A stretch of DNA of 25,754 bases from a virus (lineage: Duplodnaviria; Heunggongvirae; Uroviricota; Caudoviricetes): IMG/VR virus record IMGVR_UViG_2740892213_000014. One strand, given 5' to 3'. The notes under the pieces are model-generated. The model ran no database searches. It saw only the letters and a list, made by a program, of their open reading frames with translations, and was not told the origin of the DNA. The position numbers and the translations under genes are program-made. Below, in pieces: positions 5,092-14,321 of this stretch; positions within the stretch are counted from its first letter, which is position 1, and the number at the start of each line of letters is the position of its first letter.

Positions 5092-5213
5092 GAAACCAGA
5101 GCATGCACACACAAAAAAACCGCTTGCCATGCCGCAATCGGTCAGGTTACATTTCCGCTGCACCTCATAAAACGGGTGCCGGGATTCTCAACCCGATACA
5201 GAGCAAAGCGCAT

Positions 5214-5236
5214 AACCGCGCCAGCGGTTTTTTTGT
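5214..5236 (+). terminator. Candidate intrinsic terminator: stem AACCGC/GCGGTT, loop GCCA, then 7-T run
   Basis: Read directly from sequence at 5214-5234; lies in a ~320-bp non-coding gap inside the early operon. Confidence 0.45.
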
Positions 5237-5413
5237 GCGTACTGTATTGCCACGTCTTTTTCGCGTCAGAATTATGGCGGGGCGTACGGGGCCGACTTCG
5301 GTCGGGCCGGATTCTTTGCTCTCCGGTGTTGAGAACCCTGTACGTCTCGCCACCCCGAGATTCTCAACTCTGGATGGTGAGTTATTTCTATCACCGAGCA
5401 AAGAGGCCACACC

Positions 5414-5644
5414 ATGGCAAACCGCAAACAGCACCGCGCTATCGCGGAGCGTCGTCACATCCAGACTGAAATCAACCGCAGACTTTCCCGCGCATTCCGC
5501 GTCGCTAAAATCATGCACATCAATATGCTGCATGAGCGTAGCTGCGAACTTTCAAACCTCTACTCATCCGCTGTTTTCAGCTATCTGGCGGATGATCTGC
5601 GCGAGCTTCAACAGCTCATCCAGCAGCAAAACAAACTCCATTAA
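5414..5644 (+). CDS. Hypothetical early protein, 76 aa
   Basis: ORF track; AAGAGG RBS at 5401-5406. Confidence 0.55.
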   Translation: MANRKQHRAIAERRHIQTEINRRLSRAFRVAKIMHINMLHERSCELSNLYSSAVFSYLADDLRELQQLIQQQNKLH

Positions 5645-5716
5645 TTCCTGTTCCGGGCCTTTCCTGCACCTTGCGGCGGGAGGCCTTCGCACATCTGTAA
5701 CAAGAGGATTGCCGCA

Positions 5717-6082
5717 ATGATTCTCGCCAACGACTTTCTTGAATACCTGCTCAACACAGAGCGTGATCTTGCCGCTCGCGTACGTGATCGTTATGACATG
5801 TATCTGAAATCCCTGCCTGTGCCGCAGCTCGCTGACGGAAAGATTGTTATTGATGGTCGCTACATGATTGACAGCCACGAGGGAAATTACAGGCTTTACC
5901 GCATTGAAGGTGGCACCCCGTCCGTTATTGGCATTTACCAGCGCCCATCCTCTGCAATCGTCGATGTGATTGCCGACAGCATCCGCATCACACATCGCCA
6001 TGCCGACACAGAAGACACCGTGCTGGAAATTCAGCGGCTGGCTGCCGTCTGCCGCGACACCCTGAATGGCATGACGAAGTAA
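5717..6082 (+). CDS. Hypothetical early protein, 121 aa
   Basis: ORF track; AGAGGA RBS upstream; immediately precedes gene A. Confidence 0.55.
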   Translation: MILANDFLEYLLNTERDLAARVRDRYDMYLKSLPVPQLADGKIVIDGRYMIDSHEGNYRLYRIEGGTPSVIGIYQRPSSAIVDVIADSIRITHRHADTEDTVLEIQRLAAVCRDTLNGMTK

Positions 6083-6088
6083 ATCACT

Positions 6089-8911
6089 ATGACGGCAGAG
6101 TACATCAGGGACTGGCAACAACCGCGCCACGCAGTGGGACGTGAAGGAACGGGGATCCCCGTTCCTGAATCCGCGCTTTCCTCCTGGCTGGATGCCTACC
6201 GGGCAGAGAACGAGCGCCGCCAGGAAATGGCTGATGCGGCGTTCTCCGCCACGCCGCTGGGCAACCTGATTAATAAAAGCCTGGATGCACAGGAAAAACA
6301 GGACAAAACCATCACACTGGCAGGAGACGCCAGAAAACAGGTACGCGGTGCGGTGGATGAAGCCATGGCCTCGCTGCGCCTGCTGCCGTCCTATCTGCGC
6401 GATCCGCTTATTCGCCACCTCTCCTTCCTGCGCAAAAAACAGGAAGCCGATCGCCGGAAAGGCAAAAAGAGCTGGCAGGCTGAACGCTACGCGCGCGGAA
6501 CCCTGCGCAAAATATTCGAACGTCTGGACCGCACCGACCACCGCTGGCTGACACCGGGTTATCGCTCCCTTGCCGGACGCGAACGCCTGGATGATTTGCT
6601 TTACCTGCCGCAGCTCAACAAGCACCAGATACAGACGCTGGCCACCATGACGGCGGCGATGTTCAGCAGCACCTTCGAAAAACTCTGCGATGGCTTTGGC
6701 GCGACTGATGGCGAGCTGACCATGGATGTAACGCTGAAGGCGTATCAGATGCTGGCCCGCATGGCGTTACACCTGCACGCCATGCCTCCGCATTATGACG
6801 CACTGACAACAGACAAAGACCGGAGGAACGAACCGGACACGGAGCTGCTGCCGGGCGCAATCCTTCGCCTGACCTGTGCGGAATGGTGGAAACGCAAACT
6901 GTGGCTGTTACGTTGCGAGTGGCGGGAAGAACAACTCCGCGCCGCCTGTCTGGTTTCCAGAAAAACATCGCCCTATCTGAGCCAGGACGCGTTAAGCGAG
7001 TTTCGCGCACAGCGCGAGAAAACACGCGATTTCCTGAAAAGTTTCATGCTGGAAAACGAAGACGGGTTCACGATTGATCTCGAGACGGTGTATTACGCGG
7101 GAGTAAGTAACCCGGTTCACCGTAAGGCAGAAATGATGGCCACCATGAAGGGGCTGGAACTTCTGGCCGAAGCCCGTGGCGACAAAGCGGTGTTTCTGAC
7201 TGTCACCTGCCCGTCAAAATACCACGCCACAACAGAGAACGGTCATCCGAATCCCAAATGGAACGGGGCCACCATGCGCGACTCCAGCGATTACCTGGTT
7301 AACACGTTTTTTGCGGCGGTCCGCAAGAAACTGAACCGCGACGGCCTGCGCTGGTATGGCATCCGCACGGTGGAGCCTCACCATGACGGCACCGTGCACT
7401 GGCATATGATGGTCTTTGCTCATCCGGAAGAAATCGACACCATTGTGTCCCACACCCGCGATATTGCCATTCAGGAAGATCGTCACGAGCTGGGTGATGA
7501 TATTACCCCACGCTTTAAGGCGGAGTACGTCGACGGCTCAAAAGGCACACCGACCAGCTACATCGCCACCTACATCGGGAAAAACCTGGACAGCCGTGCC
7601 GTGGATGGCATCGACCCGAAAACGGGCAAGCCACGCGTTGACCACGAAACCGGAAAATCAATGGCCGAGAGCGTGGAACGCGCCATCGGCTGGGCGCGCC
7701 TTCACCGGGTCCGCCAGTTCCAGTTCTTTGGTATCCCCTCCCGTCAGGTGTGGCGTGAACTGCGCCGCCTTGCCAGCCAGATGGCTCGCAACCCGGAAGG
7801 ACCGCAACGGCTGAAGGATGACGCAATGGACGCGGTTCTTGCTGCCGCTGATGCCGGATGTTTTGCCACCTACATAGAGAAACAGGGCGGCGTACTTGTT
7901 CCACGCAAGGACTACCTGATTCGCACCGCCTACGACCTCGCCGATGAGCTGAACGATTACGGTGAACAGAGCGTACAGATTTACGGGATCTGGTCACCGC
8001 TCATCGGGGAGTCTTCCCGCGTATGCACGCATCCGGACAACTGGAAGCTGGTAAGACGCAAACCGGAAGCGGAAGACAGCGCCCGCGAAAATGGTTTTGA
8101 CCTTCAGGGCGGCCCTGCCGCACCTTGGACTCGTGGCAATAACTGTCCCCGTGTACAGGAAACGGACAACAACGGGACAGAACAGCCGGAAGAACGGCCA
8201 GCACCGTGGCCGCAGCTTCCTGACGGCGTTGACGTGAACGAATGGATGCGCTCACTGAAACGGCACGAACGCCGGGCGCTGATGCGTTCGCTGCGTGACA
8301 AACAGGCAAAAAACAGCAGTGATGAAATGCAGAGCTGGACACAGAGCCGCAAACAGCAGCGGCCTTTGCCTGATAACCACGAATTACTCGCTAAAGAATG
8401 GCGGGAATCTGCCGAATCTCTCGGCCTGCATATCGGTGAACAGCAGATGCAGCACCTGTTACGGGGCGGCAGCCTGTACGTTGACGGCAGCATCATTGCA
8501 CCGCAGGGATTTGAAATTGTACGCAAACCGGATACCCGCCCGGACAGCCGAATCACGCAGCTCTGGCAGCGCCTGAGCCGTAATCACGGCGTAAGCAGCA
8601 CGGAGATCCGCCATAACCCGGTCGCCAGCTATCTGGAACAGCTGGGGGCATCAGACCCCGAAGCCGCCGCACGTCTGGCATCCACACTTCAGCAGGACCA
8701 GAACACCATGAACCCCCCCGTTACCGTGCTTTCTGACATGCTGCGCGCCATCCGCGACGCAGAGCACGCACAGAGAATCAGTGAAACCACTGAACGTGCC
8801 CGCCGCAAAGCAGACCTGCTGCGGGGTGGCCTGACCAGTGGAAACAAAAAACAGACAGAAACGGGATTCACAAATCCCGTAAATGAGCAAAAAACGCGCC
8901 GCGATATATGA
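6089..8911 (+). CDS. A: Rolling-circle replication initiator / replication endonuclease, P2 gpA family, 940 aa
   Basis: HUH-type motif VHWHMMVF and paired catalytic tyrosines in SYIATYIGKN (Y-x3-Y) are typical of gpA/phiX174-A-type initiators. Position between early genes and portal matches P2 synteny. Protein is longer than I recall for P2 A, with a C-terminal extension. Confidence 0.88.
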   Translation: MTAEYIRDWQQPRHAVGREGTGIPVPESALSSWLDAYRAENERRQEMADAAFSATPLGNLINKSLDAQEKQDKTITLAGDARKQVRGAVDEAMASLRLLPSYLRDPLIRHLSFLRKKQEADRRKGKKSWQAERYARGTLRKIFERLDRTDHRWLTPGYRSLAGRERLDDLLYLPQLNKHQIQTLATMTAAMFSSTFEKLCDGFGATDGELTMDVTLKAYQMLARMALHLHAMPPHYDALTTDKDRRNEPDTELLPGAILRLTCAEWWKRKLWLLRCEWREEQLRAACLVSRKTSPYLSQDALSEFRAQREKTRDFLKSFMLENEDGFTIDLETVYYAGVSNPVHRKAEMMATMKGLELLAEARGDKAVFLTVTCPSKYHATTENGHPNPKWNGATMRDSSDYLVNTFFAAVRKKLNRDGLRWYGIRTVEPHHDGTVHWHMMVFAHPEEIDTIVSHTRDIAIQEDRHELGDDITPRFKAEYVDGSKGTPTSYIATYIGKNLDSRAVDGIDPKTGKPRVDHETGKSMAESVERAIGWARLHRVRQFQFFGIPSRQVWRELRRLASQMARNPEGPQRLKDDAMDAVLAAADAGCFATYIEKQGGVLVPRKDYLIRTAYDLADELNDYGEQSVQIYGIWSPLIGESSRVCTHPDNWKLVRRKPEAEDSARENGFDLQGGPAAPWTRGNNCPRVQETDNNGTEQPEERPAPWPQLPDGVDVNEWMRSLKRHERRALMRSLRDKQAKNSSDEMQSWTQSRKQQRPLPDNHELLAKEWRESAESLGLHIGEQQMQHLLRGGSLYVDGSIIAPQGFEIVRKPDTRPDSRITQLWQRLSRNHGVSSTEIRHNPVASYLEQLGASDPEAAARLASTLQQDQNTMNPPVTVLSDMLRAIRDAEHAQRISETTERARRKADLLRGGLTSGNKKQTETGFTNPVNEQKTRRDI

Positions 8912-8956
8912 AGCGCACACAAAACAGGCAAAAACGGGATTTCAGAATCCCGTAAA
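8858..8956. repeat. Two ~26-bp direct repeats, each with a perfect 8-bp-arm palindrome ACGGGATT-N4-AATCCCGT (8861-8880 and 8934-8953); candidate parC-like centromere or operator
   Basis: Read directly from sequence. Repeats bracket the stop codon of A and lie just upstream of the ParM homologue. Confidence 0.35.
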
Positions 8957-8987
8957 CGATTAATTAATCAACATAAGGAAAAGCGAC

Positions 8988-9947
8988 ATGAAAATTTGTA
9001 TCGACGACGGCTCCACCAACATCAAGCTGGCATGGACTGAGAATGGCGAACGCCGCAACGCCATCAGCCCGAACAGCTTCAAGTCGGAATGGTCTGCGCC
9101 GTTCGGTGGCATGCAGCCCGCGAACTACATGCTTGATGGCGTGCGCTATGGTTTTGATCCGGTCAGCGATCGCTTTGTCCAGACGACCGACACGCAATAC
9201 CAGTACAGCGATGTGAATGTAATCGCCATTCATCACGCGCTGGTCAAATCAGGCATCACGCCACAGGAGGTGGATGTGGTTGTCACCCTGCCACTGAGCG
9301 AGTATTTCGACACAAACGCACAGCCGGACATGGCCAACATCAACCGCAAAAAAGCGAACGTTATGCGCCCGGTGGAGTACCAGAACGGCGAAGCATTCAC
9401 TATCCGTAACGTGCGGGTTATGCCTGAATCCATTCCGGCTGGCTTTAAAGCACTGGCTGACATGAGTCCGTTTGAATCCCTGCTGATTGTGGATTTAGGC
9501 GGAACCACGCTGGATGTGGCAAAGGTTCAGGGGCAACTGGCAGGTATCAGCCAGGTGTTTTGCGATCCACACGTAGGCGTCTCCCTGATGGCCGGTGCCG
9601 TGCTGTCGGTGATGGCCGCTAACGGTATGCGTACCAGTCACCACATCGCCAATACCATTATCGAACATCGCCATGATGAAGCCTGGTTGCGCCAACACAT
9701 CCACAATGACGCGCATTACGCCAGCCTGATGGCGGTTATTCGTGAAAAGGAAGAAACACTGAAACAACGCGTGATCCGCGCGCTGGCGGGTTTTTCGGGT
9801 TACGGGCGGGTGATGGTTGTCGGTGGCGGGGCGGAGATTGTGGCACCCGCTATCCGCGAAGCCTGCGGAGTTAATGCGACTTTCATCGCGGACGGGGTGC
9901 CACAGTTTGCTCTGGTTAATGGGCTGTACGCAATGGACAAGGAGTAA
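8988..9947 (+). CDS. parM: Actin-like segregation ATPase, ParM/StbA family, 319 aa
   Basis: Long-range similarity to plasmid R1 ParM as I recall it (N-terminal IDDGSTNIKL, YSDVNV…HHAL, VMPESIPAG, DLGGTTLD, VGGGAE). AAGGAA RBS upstream. Confidence 0.8.
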   Translation: MKICIDDGSTNIKLAWTENGERRNAISPNSFKSEWSAPFGGMQPANYMLDGVRYGFDPVSDRFVQTTDTQYQYSDVNVIAIHHALVKSGITPQEVDVVVTLPLSEYFDTNAQPDMANINRKKANVMRPVEYQNGEAFTIRNVRVMPESIPAGFKALADMSPFESLLIVDLGGTTLDVAKVQGQLAGISQVFCDPHVGVSLMAGAVLSVMAANGMRTSHHIANTIIEHRHDEAWLRQHIHNDAHYASLMAVIREKEETLKQRVIRALAGFSGYGRVMVVGGGAEIVAPAIREACGVNATFIADGVPQFALVNGLYAMDKE

Positions 9948-9951
9948 ACCA

Positions 9952-10266
9952 ATGACGACACCAACCAGACGGATAAGTTTCTATCTGAAGCCAGTCGCCG
10001 TCAATAGTGAACGGGAGGCGTGTAATTACCTCGACAGCCTGCCAGCCTCTGAACGCAGCCGCGCGCAACGCGCGGCCTTTCTGGCCGGGCTGGCACTCAT
10101 AAAACGCGATCCTGCATTTGCCTATTGGTTGGCCGAATGGCCGGAAGAAGGAGCTGCGCCAGCCAAGAATAATATTCAGAGTAAATATGCCAGCACACCT
10201 GCCACCGGAAGCAATCACAGCACTAGCGAGATAAGAAAGAACATTCAGTCATTTTTCCCAGAGTGA
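9952..10266 (+). CDS. parR: ParR/StbB-like centromere-binding adaptor, 104 aa
   Basis: Start moved to ATG 9952 (MTTPTRRISFYLKP…), 5 nt after parM stop, with AAGGAG RBS. Segment DSLPASERSRAQRAAFLAGLAL resembles R1 ParR as recalled. Confidence 0.65.
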   Translation: MTTPTRRISFYLKPVAVNSEREACNYLDSLPASERSRAQRAAFLAGLALIKRDPAFAYWLAEWPEEGAAPAKNNIQSKYASTPATGSNHSTSEIRKNIQSFFPE

Positions 10267-10285: not shown

Positions 10286-10747
10286 ATGGCAACTATCCCC
10301 AAAAAATGGTTACAACGCAAAATTGCAGACCTTGAATCGTGTCGTGAAGACATCCCGTTTGGCCTTGATGAAAACGATCACAATATGTTAATCGCACTGA
10401 AAATCGCACTCACATCGCTGGAAGCAGAGGCAGTTATGTTCTGTATATCAGGACAAAATGTAGATTCAGAAGAACATGTATCAACCAGCAAAGCGGTTGT
10501 TGATGCCTGGGTTGAAGAATGGAATCAGGTTGACGGAAGTCCTGGCGAACCACTGTACAAAACTATGCCACTCTACTATCACGCTGCCTTGCCAGCGCCG
10601 GTAGTGCCGGAAGAAGCAACTCCGGAAAACGTAGAAATGCTCTCTGGCTATGTTTCCACATACAAATTAACCGATAGCGAGCGCGATATTGCTGCCGAAA
10701 TATGGAACGCCTGCCGCGCCGCTATGCTTCATGGGAAAGGAGAGTGA
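10286..10747 (+). CDS. Hypothetical acidic protein, 153 aa
   Basis: ORF track; strong RBS AGGAGAGGAG. Composition is strongly acidic; no recognisable motif. Confidence 0.55.
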   Translation: MATIPKKWLQRKIADLESCREDIPFGLDENDHNMLIALKIALTSLEAEAVMFCISGQNVDSEEHVSTSKAVVDAWVEEWNQVDGSPGEPLYKTMPLYYHAALPAPVVPEEATPENVEMLSGYVSTYKLTDSERDIAAEIWNACRAAMLHGKGE

Positions 10748-10748
10748 T

Positions 10749-11012
10749 ATGGCAACTTTAACAAAAAAAGAACGGGCATGGTTGAACGAATTACAGGACG
10801 TTCTTGATCGCTGCCCATCACCGAAAAAAATTGGTTTTTACACCATTGGCGATAAAAGCATTTACCTGTATGACCTGCGCCGCATGGATGAAATCATGGA
10901 GGCTCTTGATAATCGTTCGTCAATGGATTGGTGTGTTGCTGTCCATGATATGAATGCAGGGTTTGATGAAAAGATTTTGTTCCCCTCATCAGTTGAAAGC
11001 ACAGCAGGATAA
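10749..11012 (+). CDS. Hypothetical protein, 87 aa
   Basis: Start moved to ATG 10749 (MATLTKKERAWLNEL…), 2 nt after upstream stop, with AAAGGAGAG RBS. Confidence 0.5.
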   Translation: MATLTKKERAWLNELQDVLDRCPSPKKIGFYTIGDKSIYLYDLRRMDEIMEALDNRSSMDWCVAVHDMNAGFDEKILFPSSVESTAG

Positions 11013-11046
11013 GGACCCAGCCAATATACACAACCTATAAAACACT

Positions 11047-11073
11047 AAAGCGCCTCAGGGGCGCTTTTTGTTT
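11047..11073 (+). terminator. Intrinsic terminator: 8-bp stem AAAGCGCC/GGCGCTTT followed by T-run
   Basis: Read directly from sequence, 35 nt after the last plus-strand accessory gene. Confidence 0.6.
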
Positions 11074-11099
11074 GCACAAAAGTGCACAAATTTGCACAA
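11073..11099. repeat. Three direct repeats of TGCACAA / GCACAA at ~10-bp spacing
   Basis: Read directly: tTGCACAAaagTGCACAAatttGCACAAt, in the presumed cos-proximal non-coding region. Confidence 0.3.
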
Positions 11100-11473
11100 T
11101 TTTTTTGAACGACTTTTTACCCTTCCGGCCCGCATGGCGGCTGGATCCGTCAAGGATCCGTGCGTGCACAAAAAAACGCGCTTTTTCTACGCGCAGGTGA
11201 CGGGGGAACAGCCCGCGTTTCAGGGGGTAAATAGCATTCCCTGAACGATGTCGCAGAGATACAACAGAATGGCTGTATTTCTCACGCTGAGCGTGAAAAA
11301 GACGTGAGGGCTTTTGATTTGATGGGGTGAAAGGTAAGGCCGTCAAAATCGCACTGAGACGGCGAGAACATGCAGTCAACGCGGTGGGATTGCGTAAGAG
11401 TCTGGCTGTCGATGATGGCAATAAGCAGGAAAGCGTCGTGAAATTATCTGATTGATACAGGAGCTGGAGAGTC

Positions 11474-11496
11474 GGGGCATAAATTTTTTATGCCCC
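11474..11496. other. Perfect 23-bp palindrome GGGGCATAAATTTTTTATGCCCC, downstream of portal gene
   Basis: Read directly. 10-bp stem with 3-nt loop and no flanking U-tract; possible terminator for the P-Q operon or a protein-binding site. Confidence 0.35.
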
Positions 11497-11523
11497 GGCG
11501 AAGCAGCAGACAAGCGAAGCGCG

Positions 11524-12570
11524 TCAGGATGTGGGCTGGGTGTCCAGCAGTGCATAAGGGTTAAAGCGGATCACCTCTTCGCCAAGCCAGTCATTGATGT
11601 GCTTCATGGCCTCCATGACGGGCATCAGCTCGTTAATTGCGTAAACCCGCGCGGCCTTCTCCACATCACCAAACGCACTTTTTTCGCCCGGCATCGCCCC
11701 CATCAGTTGCGGCGGAACGCGGTGCGCAGCCAGCACATCATCACGGGATGCCGCCTTAACATTCATGAACTCATCCTTTGCGGTGATCTGCTGGAACGGC
11801 AAAATTTGCACCCCCTCTTTGCCCCCGTTGGGCGCATGGATGAGCACGTTTTTAAACGCACCACCACCACGCGCACCCTGTAGCGTTTCTTTCAGGGAGT
11901 CCATGCTTTCGCGGTTTACCTGCGCTGCACCGATGTAGATGATGCACCCGGCGTGGGATCCATTGTCGTAATACAGTTTTCTGAACATGTCCGCCGAATG
12001 AGACAGGCTGGCCGAGAGTAATGCGCCAAGATATTCCGGCATGCCGTAAATTTCCTGGTTAATGTCAGGATTCATCAGGTGGCACACTTTGCCAGGGCGA
12101 AACTGAAACGCGTCCTTGCCATCCTGCACATACCACCATGATTCAAGATCGCTTCCGCGTCGCATGTATTTCGCCAGGGCGTGCCGTAATTTAAGCGGTT
12201 CGCCGAGCATATTGCTTCGAAGCTCAAGGAATGCGTTACCGAACACAAACCAGTCCAGCGCCAGCGCCGAGAAATCCTGCCGGGAAAGCAGCGGGTGCGG
12301 AATATAGCAGCCGAGCAATACATTGCGCTTAAAGTAAAGCGCAGACTGATGCCAGGACGTTTGCCGGGCAGCTCTTGCCAGACCGTACCAGTCCACCGGG
12401 GTTTCGTACCACCGCCCGTTATCAGCACAGTACATATTGTCCAGCAGGTCATGCCCGGTCAGGCGATAAGGACCATCAAATGTGAATGCACTGAGCGATG
12501 ATTCTTTCCTGAGCGCATCAGCGAGATCAATGCGTGAACTCATGCGCACTTTTTTATTTTTTCTGCTCAT
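11524..12570 (-). CDS. Q: Portal (capsid portal) protein, P2 gpQ family
   Basis: Size (348 aa) and position downstream of terminase large subunit match P2 Q. Start ATG at 12570-12568 overlaps the TGA stop of P (TGATG coupling). Confidence 0.88.
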   Translation of the reverse strand: MSRKNKKVRMSSRIDLADALRKESSLSAFTFDGPYRLTGHDLLDNMYCADNGRWYETPVDWYGLARAARQTSWHQSALYFKRNVLLGCYIPHPLLSRQDFSALALDWFVFGNAFLELRSNMLGEPLKLRHALAKYMRRGSDLESWWYVQDGKDAFQFRPGKVCHLMNPDINQEIYGMPEYLGALLSASLSHSADMFRKLYYDNGSHAGCIIYIGAAQVNRESMDSLKETLQGARGGGAFKNVLIHAPNGGKEGVQILPFQQITAKDEFMNVKAASRDDVLAAHRVPPQLMGAMPGEKSAFGDVEKAARVYAINELMPVMEAMKHINDWLGEEVIRFNPYALLDTQPTS

Positions 12571-14321
12571 CAGAACTCCATAACCGTGAAACGCTCGTTT
12601 TCTCCTTCGCCGCCAATCGGTTCGTTAATGACAGCAAGCATGGTTGCCCACGCAAGGTCGCCGTGGCTGATCCCCCTCGCTCGGTCCGTTTCGTAAGTGA
12701 TAAAGCCGCCCGGTGTTTTCACCTTACGCACGGCGTTAAAGGCCGCGACCAGCTCGCGTTCGGCGCGATCGTATTCCCACCGCCCGGCACGCATTATTTG
12801 CAGCATTTTCAGTACCAGCGACCGTTTTGATGACAGCGTGAAGGTGTACGGAATAGCAGCAGGGAAAAACCGTTTCACTATCTGATAAACAGCCTCCCCG
12901 TTCCCGCCCGTCACATCAATGCCGATGTGTTCCACGTTGTAGCGATACGTGAACTCTTCAATGACTCTGGCCTGTTCTTCAAACTCCAGCCCCTGAACGC
13001 GTCGCGTCTCCACCGTTCGAAAACGGCCACCAGGAACAGCCGGAGGAACCACCACGGACACAGCGCCGCTGTCGCCGTTGCCACTGCTGCCGTTTGCGTC
13101 ATACCCAATCCATACTGGACGATTCCCCATCGGGCGGGGAGCAAAAGGTTTCCAGTCTTTCCAGTCGTCGTATCCGTCAACACCGCAGCCAATCAGGATA
13201 TTCAGGTTAAATGCCGATTCCCCTTCGCGGACAAACTCACACATATAGAGATTGAGGAACTCGTCTTCGGTGTTTTCATCACGAATTTCGTCGATATCGG
13301 TGTGTTTCCAGCCGTGATTGACCACATCTTCCAGCGTGACAATTTGCCGCCATGTCCGGTCAGGGCAGATAAGCCCGTTATGCAGCGTTTTCCAGTCCAC
13401 AGAAAAACGCTGGCGTTTATGCGAGGCCTTTTTCTCGTTCCAGCGGTCGCCGTTCCAGTAGGCGTATGCCTCGTGCGTTTCGGTGGATGGCGTGGAGAAG
13501 TAGGTGCGCCGCAATCCGCTGAGGGTTGCCATAGCGCCAGCCACCTTGCGCAGTTCAGCAAAGCGACTGACCCAGAAAAATTCATCAAAATAAAAATTGC
13601 CCGTATAGGACTGTGCCGACGCAGCAGAAGTGCCGAGAAAATGCAGCTCTGCGCCGTTGGAGAGGATGATTTTATCGCCCCCTTTCAGCTCCACATCAAC
13701 TTCAGCCGCGGCCTTCTGAATAATGCTTTTAAACTGGAACGCCTGACGACGCGACGCAGACAAAAAAATCTGGTTACGCTGGTAAGGTTGCGCCACATCG
13801 TCACGCAGCGCCATCAGCAGTGCTTCCTGTGCAAAATACCAGGTCGCCCCAATCTGTCGGGATTTCAGGATCATCCTGTTACGTATCCCGGCTTCCCTGC
13901 AAAGAGTCAGGGAGTCAAACCAGCCCCGCTGATGCCACTCCAGCCTGCTGATGATTTTTTCCCGCAGTGCAGCAATCTGTTCCGGCGTGAAATGATTTTT
14001 AAGTTTTTTCGCCCGGCCTTTCTTTCCTGTGGCCGTCGCATCTGGCTGGCCATCATGCAGTTTTTTAAGCTGCCGGGTCAGCAGGTCTATTTCCTTGAAG
14101 TCACCACCTGTTTTATTCTGTTTTTCAGTAAGCTGGATGAGGCGCGCATCGATGGACTGCGTGACACGCTGCACGGGTGGCGTTTCATCCCACTGGTCGC
14201 GTTTTTTCCACGCATAAATCGTGTTCGGGTTTATTCCCATCAGACGTGAGATTTCTGCGGGCGGATAACCCTGCCAGTAAAGTTGCCGCGCACGCTGGCG
14301 CACAAAAGCGTCCTGAATCAT
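12570..14321 (-). CDS. P: Terminase ATPase (large) subunit, P2 gpP family, 583 aa
   Basis: ORF track; size and synteny (divergent from O, upstream of Q) match P2 P. GGGGGAG RBS on minus strand upstream of ATG 14321. Confidence 0.9.
   Translation of the reverse strand: MIQDAFVRQRARQLYWQGYPPAEISRLMGINPNTIYAWKKRDQWDETPPVQRVTQSIDARLIQLTEKQNKTGGDFKEIDLLTRQLKKLHDGQPDATATGKKGRAKKLKNHFTPEQIAALREKIISRLEWHQRGWFDSLTLCREAGIRNRMILKSRQIGATWYFAQEALLMALRDDVAQPYQRNQIFLSASRRQAFQFKSIIQKAAAEVDVELKGGDKIILSNGAELHFLGTSAASAQSYTGNFYFDEFFWVSRFAELRKVAGAMATLSGLRRTYFSTPSTETHEAYAYWNGDRWNEKKASHKRQRFSVDWKTLHNGLICPDRTWRQIVTLEDVVNHGWKHTDIDEIRDENTEDEFLNLYMCEFVREGESAFNLNILIGCGVDGYDDWKDWKPFAPRPMGNRPVWIGYDANGSSGNGDSGAVSVVVPPAVPGGRFRTVETRRVQGLEFEEQARVIEEFTYRYNVEHIGIDVTGGNGEAVYQIVKRFFPAAIPYTFTLSSKRSLVLKMLQIMRAGRWEYDRAERELVAAFNAVRKVKTPGGFITYETDRARGISHGDLAWATMLAVINEPIGGEGENERFTVMEF

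Follow-up and report, generated by a model that had tools for sequence, protein, structure and literature searches.

We analyzed the interval between the replication gene A and the portal gene Q in IMG/VR record IMGVR_UViG_2740892213_000014, a stretch of 25,754 nucleotides that is referred to below as the window. The window is a P2-family prophage of the P88-like type (Xuanwuvirus, Peduoviridae), and the region is 94–99% identical to Escherichia phage P88 and other Xuanwuvirus phages. Adjoining gene A is a cassette related to the ParM/ParR partition systems of plasmids. It comprises a gene for an actin-like ATPase (parM), a gene for a putative DNA-binding adaptor (parR), and two palindromic repeats that are candidate ParR sites. 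The features that carry the argument are listed here, with protein lengths in amino acids (aa).

6089–8911, + strand: gene A, encoding gpA (940 aa), the rolling-circle replication initiator (Pfam Phage_GPA, E 2.1e-131)
8844–8886, no strand: direct repeat 1 (43 nt), with palindrome 1, ACGGGATTCACAAATCCCGT, at 8861–8880; the distal candidate ParR site
8917–8959, no strand: direct repeat 2 (43 nt), with palindrome 2, ACGGGATTTCAGAATCCCGT, at 8934–8953; the proximal candidate ParR site
8960–8987, + strand: leader upstream of parM, with the AT-rich element TTAATTAATCAA and the Shine-Dalgarno sequence AAGGA (8976–8980)
8988–9947, + strand: parM, encoding an actin-like ATPase of 319 aa (Pfam StbA_N and ParM C-terminal domain)
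9952–10266, + strand: parR, encoding a ribbon-helix-helix-type adaptor of 104 aa (Pfam Plasmid_stab_B)

A preliminary description of this DNA, drawn from its letters alone, had proposed a ParM homologue between A and Q with a ParR-like gene beside it, and had named in advance the hidden Markov model or structure-based search that could refute the proposal. That search returned significant similarity for both proteins and was decisive. ParM matches Pfam models over its full length (StbA_N, E 2.7e-82; ParM C-terminal domain, E 1.6e-67) as well as R1 ParM structures (1mwk, E 8e-93, residues 2–316, ~50% identity over 315 residues). The motifs for nucleotide binding and hydrolysis, namely D6-D7-G8-S9-T10 (DDGST), P146-E147-S148 (PES), D169-L-G-G-T-T174 (DLGGTT), and G279-G-G-A282 (GGGA), are invariant in 10 phage ParMs and align with those of R1. 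The general ALP_N model gave a weak match below its cut-off of 26.3 (25.8 bits, E 1.4e-5).

Selection was gauged on 77 distinct 1.8-kb IMG/VR segments picked by ParM similarity, with the palindrome left unused. Throughout this sample, parM is intact at 319 aa, and its nucleotide diversity at codon positions 1, 2, and 3 is 0.007, 0.005, and 0.053, respectively. Diversity at non-synonymous positions is ~10-fold below that at third positions, and ParM is therefore under strong purifying selection. parR is likewise intact in 77 of 77 segments (103–104 aa), with a constant 4-nt gap to parM. The sample contains 48 distinct ParR proteins, whereas ParM keeps ~95–99% identity to the window protein. On a 226-kb contig named 'Vagococcus sp. 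WN89Y' (L004, NZ_JBQPOM010000071.1), a ParM was found with 97% identity to that of the window; its placement in this Gram-positive genus is probably contamination or misbinning of enterobacterial DNA.

ParR matches Plasmid_stab_B (E 3.8e-25, 88 bits; cut-off, 25), and a profile of ParR and six relatives matches the pB171 ParR structure 2jd3 end to end (E 2.5e-15). The gene lies 4 nt downstream of parM (9948–9951), and its Shine-Dalgarno sequence AGGAG (9940–9944) adjoins the parM stop codon; the tight linkage described earlier thus holds, with the gap corrected from 5 nt. The protein appears to share the canonical three-part build of a conserved N-terminal DNA-binding region, a variable linker, and a conserved tail. 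Its N-terminal strand MTTPTRRISFYLKP is near-invariant (4 of the 48 distinct variants differ from it, by one or two substitutions), the linker (~residues 65–90) is hypervariable, and the C-terminal tail NI[QR]xxFP[EKDQ] is kept. A C-terminal N-[AI]-x-x-x-F motif, mostly preceded by a basic residue, is common to the ParRs of phages, integrative conjugative elements (ICEs), and plasmids, including pB171. The ParM-binding part of R1 ParR is its last 17 residues (PMC3794156), and by analogy, we regard the phage tail as a putative ParM-binding tail. The helix region occurs as two alleles, of LPASERSRA and LTPEARKSG type, and the hypervariable linker is of low complexity (window 10100–10230, codons ~50–93; loci L133–L262).

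The two direct repeats, each with a perfect palindrome, lie as previously described. The 43-nt repeats are 81% identical at a spacing of 73, and each contains a perfect 20-bp ACGGGATT-N4-AATCCCGT palindrome. Repeat 1 sits inside the 3′ end of gene A, the final 68 nt of which overlap the par site at this repeat (stop codon, 8909–8911), and 34 nt separate the end of repeat 2 from the parM ATG. No further copy of the palindrome was found in the 25.7-kb window, even with 3 mismatches allowed, and at least two palindrome matches arose in 0 of 100 shuffles. On IMG/VR viral contigs, the exact palindrome is present at 120 loci, ~110 of which adjoin a P88-type parM; the remainder are contig ends or five unrelated chance matches. 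Natural variants reduce to the consensus RCGGGAYT-N4-AATCCYGT, within which the 4-nt spacer varies freely.

We scanned the window and loci L003, L005, L006, and L008 for a double GGG-N10-CCC site and found the pair exactly once per locus, at a start-to-start distance of 72–73 bp, in the window, E. albertii, Salmonella, Plesiomonas, and Hafnia. The proximal site starts 50–56 nt before the parM ATG in every scanned locus, and the double pair appeared in 0–1.3% of trials with shuffled loci. Ahead of parM, E. coli, Plesiomonas, and Hafnia also share ATTAATCAA and the Shine-Dalgarno sequence. The upstream gene, in contrast, varies (E. coli and Plesiomonas have the end of gene A there, and Hafnia has a 167-aa open reading frame [ORF]), and because the sites persist nonetheless, they belong to the par cassette. 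Constraint on the cis site is proven by these comparative data and not by population data. Members of the Serratia/Enterobacter clade carry a different element in the same place, a 20-nt inverted repeat with ~27 nt between its arms, as would be expected if ParR specificity has diverged. No covariation between ParR alleles and site variants was found, both helix alleles occurring with the same sites; this is as expected, since the N-terminal strand of ParR is near-invariant. The centromere–adaptor–motor layout proposed earlier stands as to motor, adaptor, and conserved cis repeats, but not as to a plasmid-type centromere, given two palindromes in place of 11-bp iterons. By-eye promoter candidates in this region (TTCAGA-N17-ATTAAT and TGAGCA-N15-TATATG) are weak and not conserved, and we make no claim for them.

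Beyond the window, the cassette is common and holds a constant position. The 8840–10266 segment is present at ≥90% identity in 1,303 of 5,426 complete E. coli genomes, with up to 3 copies in one genome, and 1,441 of the 1,443 copies are chromosomal. Among the matches listed, all adjoin a 'replication endonuclease', and both genes have already been named by the NCBI pipeline. The 3′ half of the P88-type gene A occurs in 1,432 E. coli genomes; this near-equality with the parMR count, which compares totals rather than individual genomes, indicates that P88-type gpA and parMR are tightly linked. P88-like phages resemble one another from gene A across the repeats and parM as far as the 5′ half of parR; there the similarity breaks, and the segment from 10286 to 11500 varies from phage to phage, with parts common to lambdoid phages.

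The same order of gpA, parM, parR (Plasmid_stab_B), variable genes, portal Q, and terminase is kept in contigs that encode intermediate-identity ParM relatives, in P2-like prophages of Hafnia (62% ParM identity), Plesiomonas (62%), Serratia (59%), and Enterobacter ludwigii (54%). The survey of related P2-like prophages that had been recommended thus recovered the same cassette in all these genera. gpA and parM are separated by one or two other genes in the Hafnia and Enterobacter prophages. The cargo that follows parR differs among Hafnia, Plesiomonas, Serratia, and Enterobacter (small ORFs and ogr; an unknown 226-aa protein; HicAB; a KAP NTPase). Since synteny is kept across genera while the cargo changes, the association of ParMR with P2-family phages is old, and the module is a lineage-fixed attachment of gpA, with the true variable slot beginning after parR. 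The location between A and Q given in the preliminary description is correct, although the module had been counted there as variable cargo.

Relatives of ~50% ParM identity reside in an ICE and an integrated plasmid, and identity to the closest true plasmid ParMs does not exceed 53%. In a neighbor-joining tree, the phage ParMs form two groups near the midpoint root, Escherichia/Plesiomonas/Hafnia and Serratia/Enterobacter, both apart from plasmid ParMs including that of R1. A single phage ParM clade was not supported in this tree, where a chimeric sequence (P0011) disturbed the test. An IMG/VR search that used an alignment headed by the Hafnia sequence returned E. coli-type loci and no more diverged phage relatives, and a scan of a genome collection with ParM returned only 3 near-identical loci.

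The flanks of the interval are those of an integrase-bearing P2-like prophage, as had been claimed, with integrase, gpA, portal Q, and terminase all assigned by Pfam. The remaining features are as follows.

1–1008, − strand: integrase, the left-hand context
10286–11067, + strand: variable cargo region, outside the par module (ORFs 10286–10747 and 10689/10749–11012; hairpin 11047–11067)
11524–12570, − strand: portal gene Q, the far border of the A–Q interval (Pfam Phage_portal)
12570–14321, − strand: terminase, the downstream context

The window phage carries integrase, Cox, and C repressor genes, a full set for integration and immunity. The cargo ORFs have no Pfam or PADLOC match and fall in PHROGs of unknown function (5117 and 660 for the 153-aa ORF at 10286–10747). 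Segments annotated as Ea22/Ead-like in lambdoid and Stx-converting phages match those at 10286–11012 with 94–99% identity, which means that unrelated families of phages exchange cargo with the P2 hotspot. A GC-rich hairpin of 9 bp at 11047–11067, with runs of T on either strand, resembles a bidirectional terminator; it separates the cargo ORFs from the region upstream of Q, which in P2-type phages contains cos. The 128-aa minus-strand ORF at 11035–11421 matched no family and is possibly not a gene. Rfam matches at gathering score were limited to isrK (5160–5234, 62.8 bits) and C4 antisense RNA (5270–5357, 78.5 bits), both on the + strand, and no known RNA family was matched at the par site. 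The two lie within or overlap an Ash-family ORF (5103–5720) in the early region and represent a P1/P7-type regulatory element based on small RNAs inside a P2-like prophage. Four provirus contigs in IMG/VR (L033, L037, L044, and L112) terminate precisely with the stop codon of gene A (window 8911), which suggests that the programs calling provirus boundaries trim the prophage at parM, perhaps since ParM scores as plasmid- or host-like; if so, P88-like prophages are truncated in viral databases.

Neither the presence of these genes nor the idea of plasmid maintenance is new, both being already annotated and published. In RefSeq, gp17 and gp18 of P88 are annotated as 'plasmid segregation protein ParM' and 'partition protein', and the PHROGs families of both proteins (phrog_691 and phrog_2515) are labeled 'partition protein'. 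Rousset et al. (2022) surveyed the gpA–gpQ locus, reported a partition system in about a quarter of P2-like phages, suggested plasmid maintenance, and tabulated the StbA and Plasmid_stab_B arrangements in their supplement (PMC9122126), and a paper on Citrobacter rodentium prophages merely lists the system as a 'fitness' gene. What comparative sequence analysis adds here is a fixed module on the gpA side, purifying selection, a variable slot that starts after parR, and an apparently minimal cis site of two palindromes.

The identity of the pair as a working ParM and ParR is well supported by homology and motif conservation. On balance, we judge it somewhat probable that the cassette is a genuine type II (ParM/ParR) DNA-positioning module, fixed in the replication region of P88-like and related P2-family phages and acting on transient circles. 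From homology, motifs, synteny, purifying selection, and cis-site conservation, we infer DNA binding, filaments, expression timing, and role as follows. ParR dimers would bind the two GGG-N10-CCC palindromes, seven helical turns apart and directly upstream of parM. The conserved C-terminal tails of ParR would then capture the ends of ATP-driven ParM filaments, which would reposition circular phage genomes or part them from one another. Since integration is the nearly constant state of the prophage, such action would most likely be limited to transient extrachromosomal phases, namely the interval from infection to integration and, especially, the time following induction, during gene A-driven replication of circles. 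In P2, gpA is the rolling-circle initiator within a repressed early operon, and phages of this family replicate as monomeric circles, which is why action on circles is favored. parMR would be co-transcribed with the early (replication) operon, possibly under modulation by ParR, given that no consensus sigma-70 promoter was detected near or between the palindromes and no terminator-like site was found on the + strand between gene A and parM.

Several points weigh against this reading, beginning with the lack of a recognizable sigma-70 promoter just described. Within E. coli prophages, diversity in the palindrome arms (0.03–0.07) is similar to synonymous diversity (0.053) and gives no sign of extra conservation. 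Two palindromes stand where R1 has ten iterons, and they might serve only as an operator. Truncated ParM variants P0006, P0009, and P0017 (261, 229, and 188 aa) have 414, 649, and 555 database members, respectively, and the module is therefore dispensable for the resident prophage; in some widely sequenced prophage lineages, it has decayed. The searchable literature yielded no functional study of P88-type parMR. As separate observations, some members of the truncated variants lie on megabase contigs, and at IMG/VR locus L125 parM is deleted past ~20 codons.

A more specific proposal, which we advance only tentatively, is that ParMR is a dedicated part of lytic and establishment replication in a large branch of P2-family phages rather than a device for plasmid maintenance. 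Here, filaments would spread, separate, or deliver the circles made by gpA, possibly stimulating gpA as well, and would do so from a minimal two-palindrome centromere. If true, the module would be a Gram-negative, R1-type counterpart of the actin-like AlpAC system of Corynebacterium prophage CGP3 (discussed below) in about a quarter of E. coli genomes, and its site would be a natural minimal centromere for asking how few ParR dimers hold a ParM filament.

Among the alternatives, maintenance of the prophage as a stably inherited low-copy plasmid, instead of or besides integration, survives best and is nevertheless unlikely. It is the canonical role of ParMRC, it is the role explicitly suggested in print by Rousset et al. 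(PMC9122126), and the phage-plasmid D6 has a StbA 48% identical to the window protein. A complete, circular P88-like genome of 34.5 kb has moreover been deposited as 'plasmid' pZ1323PEC0009-2, closed as an excised circle would be. This record (L002, NZ_CP148288.1, 1–34461) is non-mobilizable, comes from an E. coli cat isolate, and has its ends joined between the integrase and, from the other prophage end, a DNA methyltransferase. Circles thus do occur, and this one may represent either a rare episomal state or an induction-excised circle; a single record could be explained by spontaneous induction. Against plasmid life stand the genes for integrase, Cox, and C repressor. A plasmid-type replicon is annotated neither in P88 nor in the circular record, and gpA is the sole recognizable replication initiator. 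No match in complete E. coli genomes spanned the joined integrase/methylase (attP) junction of this record, a result that is uninformative about episomes since records starting at the junction are invisible to the comparison. With 1,441 of 1,443 copies chromosomal, we reject stable plasmid life as the main role; of the three roles offered in the preliminary description, it is the least compatible with the data.

It is less probable still that segregation is not the main function and that ParM and ParR contact gpA, an HUH rolling-circle nuclease, and stimulate or localize origin nicking. The model for such a helper is R1, where ParM and ParR bind the TraI relaxase and stimulate it (PMC4949242). 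Across genera, parMR stays adjacent or close to gpA; in both E. coli and Plesiomonas, the distal candidate ParR site falls in the 3′ end of gene A; and a two-site 'centromere' fits a full segregation ring poorly. The parallel is, however, pure analogy. Intervening genes set gpA apart from parM in Hafnia and Enterobacter, and among parMR-bearing lineages, neither the length of gpA (785 to 940 aa) nor its C terminus is conserved.

A host-directed or defensive moron, acting in exclusion or incompatibility, or a decaying remnant without function is improbable to a similar degree. The module does lie within a defined defense hotspot (PMC9122126), and some lineages often carry truncated ParM alleles. 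Against this reading stand strong purifying selection, the intact state of both genes in all 77 segments, and a position kept across genera despite turnover of the neighboring cargo. Incompatibility is unlikely when the nearest plasmid ParMs share at most 53% identity, the iterons differ, and up to 3 copies coexist per genome. We reject a defense system, as neither ParM, ParR, nor the three downstream ORFs have a PADLOC match.

Finally, the palindromes could be hairpins that act independently of ParR, as minus-strand terminators or single-strand DNA signals, which is very improbable. Each E. coli palindrome folds to −8 kcal/mol (z ~ −4.6), and on the minus strand, a T-rich run after each one raises a terminator-like flag. 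However, no minus-strand gene reads into the palindromes, and in Plesiomonas and Hafnia the T/A runs are not conserved and the hairpin potential is gone (−1.9 to −3.2 kcal/mol, not significant). Because folding and T runs are lost while the symmetric GGG-N10-CCC cores and their 72–73-bp spacing are kept, the data favor recognition of duplex DNA by a symmetric protein, and the hairpin or terminator reading is rejected.

About a quarter of the complete E. coli genomes, those of O157:H7, O104:H4, and ST131 strains among them, thus harbor an actin-like motor within an integrated prophage. If parMR organizes phage DNA in replication or establishment, cytoskeleton-assisted virus replication would reach a very common family of enterobacterial phages, and P88, being inducible and engineerable, offers a genetically easy system. 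The two-site centromere bears on the minimum number of adaptor dimers needed for ParM filament capture. There are also lessons for annotation. The label 'plasmid segregation protein' in such prophages does not indicate a plasmid, provirus callers seem to place prophage borders at parM, and surveys of the P2 defense hotspot should begin their count of cargo after parR.

Compared with known systems, the cassette is closest in its parts to the ParMRC (parA/stbAB) systems of R1/NR1 and pB171. The ParM of the window and that of R1 align along their full length at ~50% identity and share all nucleotide-binding motifs. The ParRs fall in one Pfam family, and the profile built on the phage protein covers the whole of pB171 ParR. 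The order of cis site, parM, and parR is shared, with the genes tightly coupled. As in R1 parC, the repeats flank a central region directly upstream of parM. The differences lie in context and in the site. The phage cassette is in an integrating P2-family phage and is >99% chromosomal, not in a low-copy extrachromosomal replicon; the phage ParMs form lineages of their own; and the 104-aa ParR is without ~20 residues that extend past the helical core in relatives. In R1, parC covers 159 bp, of which a 39-bp promoter core lies between two groups of five direct 11-bp iterons (PMC2241845), and ten ParR dimers form a ring that holds the filament end (PMC3794156). The phage site consists of two 20-bp palindromes 73 bp apart and, judged from the number of palindromes, cannot build such a ring. 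Upstream of parM, an integrated-plasmid relative (L012, 6806–6982) has a TATAAT surrounded by ~nine TATCTC iterons with an 11-bp phase. TATCTC-type iterons in the same phase and setting occur in an ICE relative (L011, 6860–6950), and set against the two-palindrome phage site, these arrays are usable for tracing centromere reduction.

Phage-plasmids offer a second comparison. The P1-like D6 has a phage-borne StbA 48% identical to the window ParM, but the D6/P1, N15, and SSU5 types persist as plasmids, with plasmid replicons and partition systems and no integration module, whereas the window phage has integrase, Cox, and C and is found integrated. The 'putative plasmid partitioning system' of Rousset et al. 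(PMC9122126) is the same object, with the same StbA and Plasmid_stab_B arrangements; it was treated there as one hotspot content among many and is described here as a conserved gpA-side module with cargo downstream.

The best functional precedent, by analogy, is AlpAC of the Corynebacterium glutamicum prophage CGP3. This early-induced system tethers circular phage DNA to actin-like filaments after induction, and efficient replication of the phage DNA depends on it (Donovan et al. 2015, PMC4446434). Much like the P88-type cassette with its putative adaptor and candidate sites, AlpC, AlpA, and alpS comprise a prophage-encoded actin-like ATPase, a DNA-binding adaptor (co-transcribed in CGP3), and an adaptor site upstream of the operon. 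AlpC belongs to a different actin-like family, whereas the window protein is a true R1-type ParM, set apart by its ALP_N score and its ParM match. AlpAC also works in a Gram-positive host and a different type of phage.

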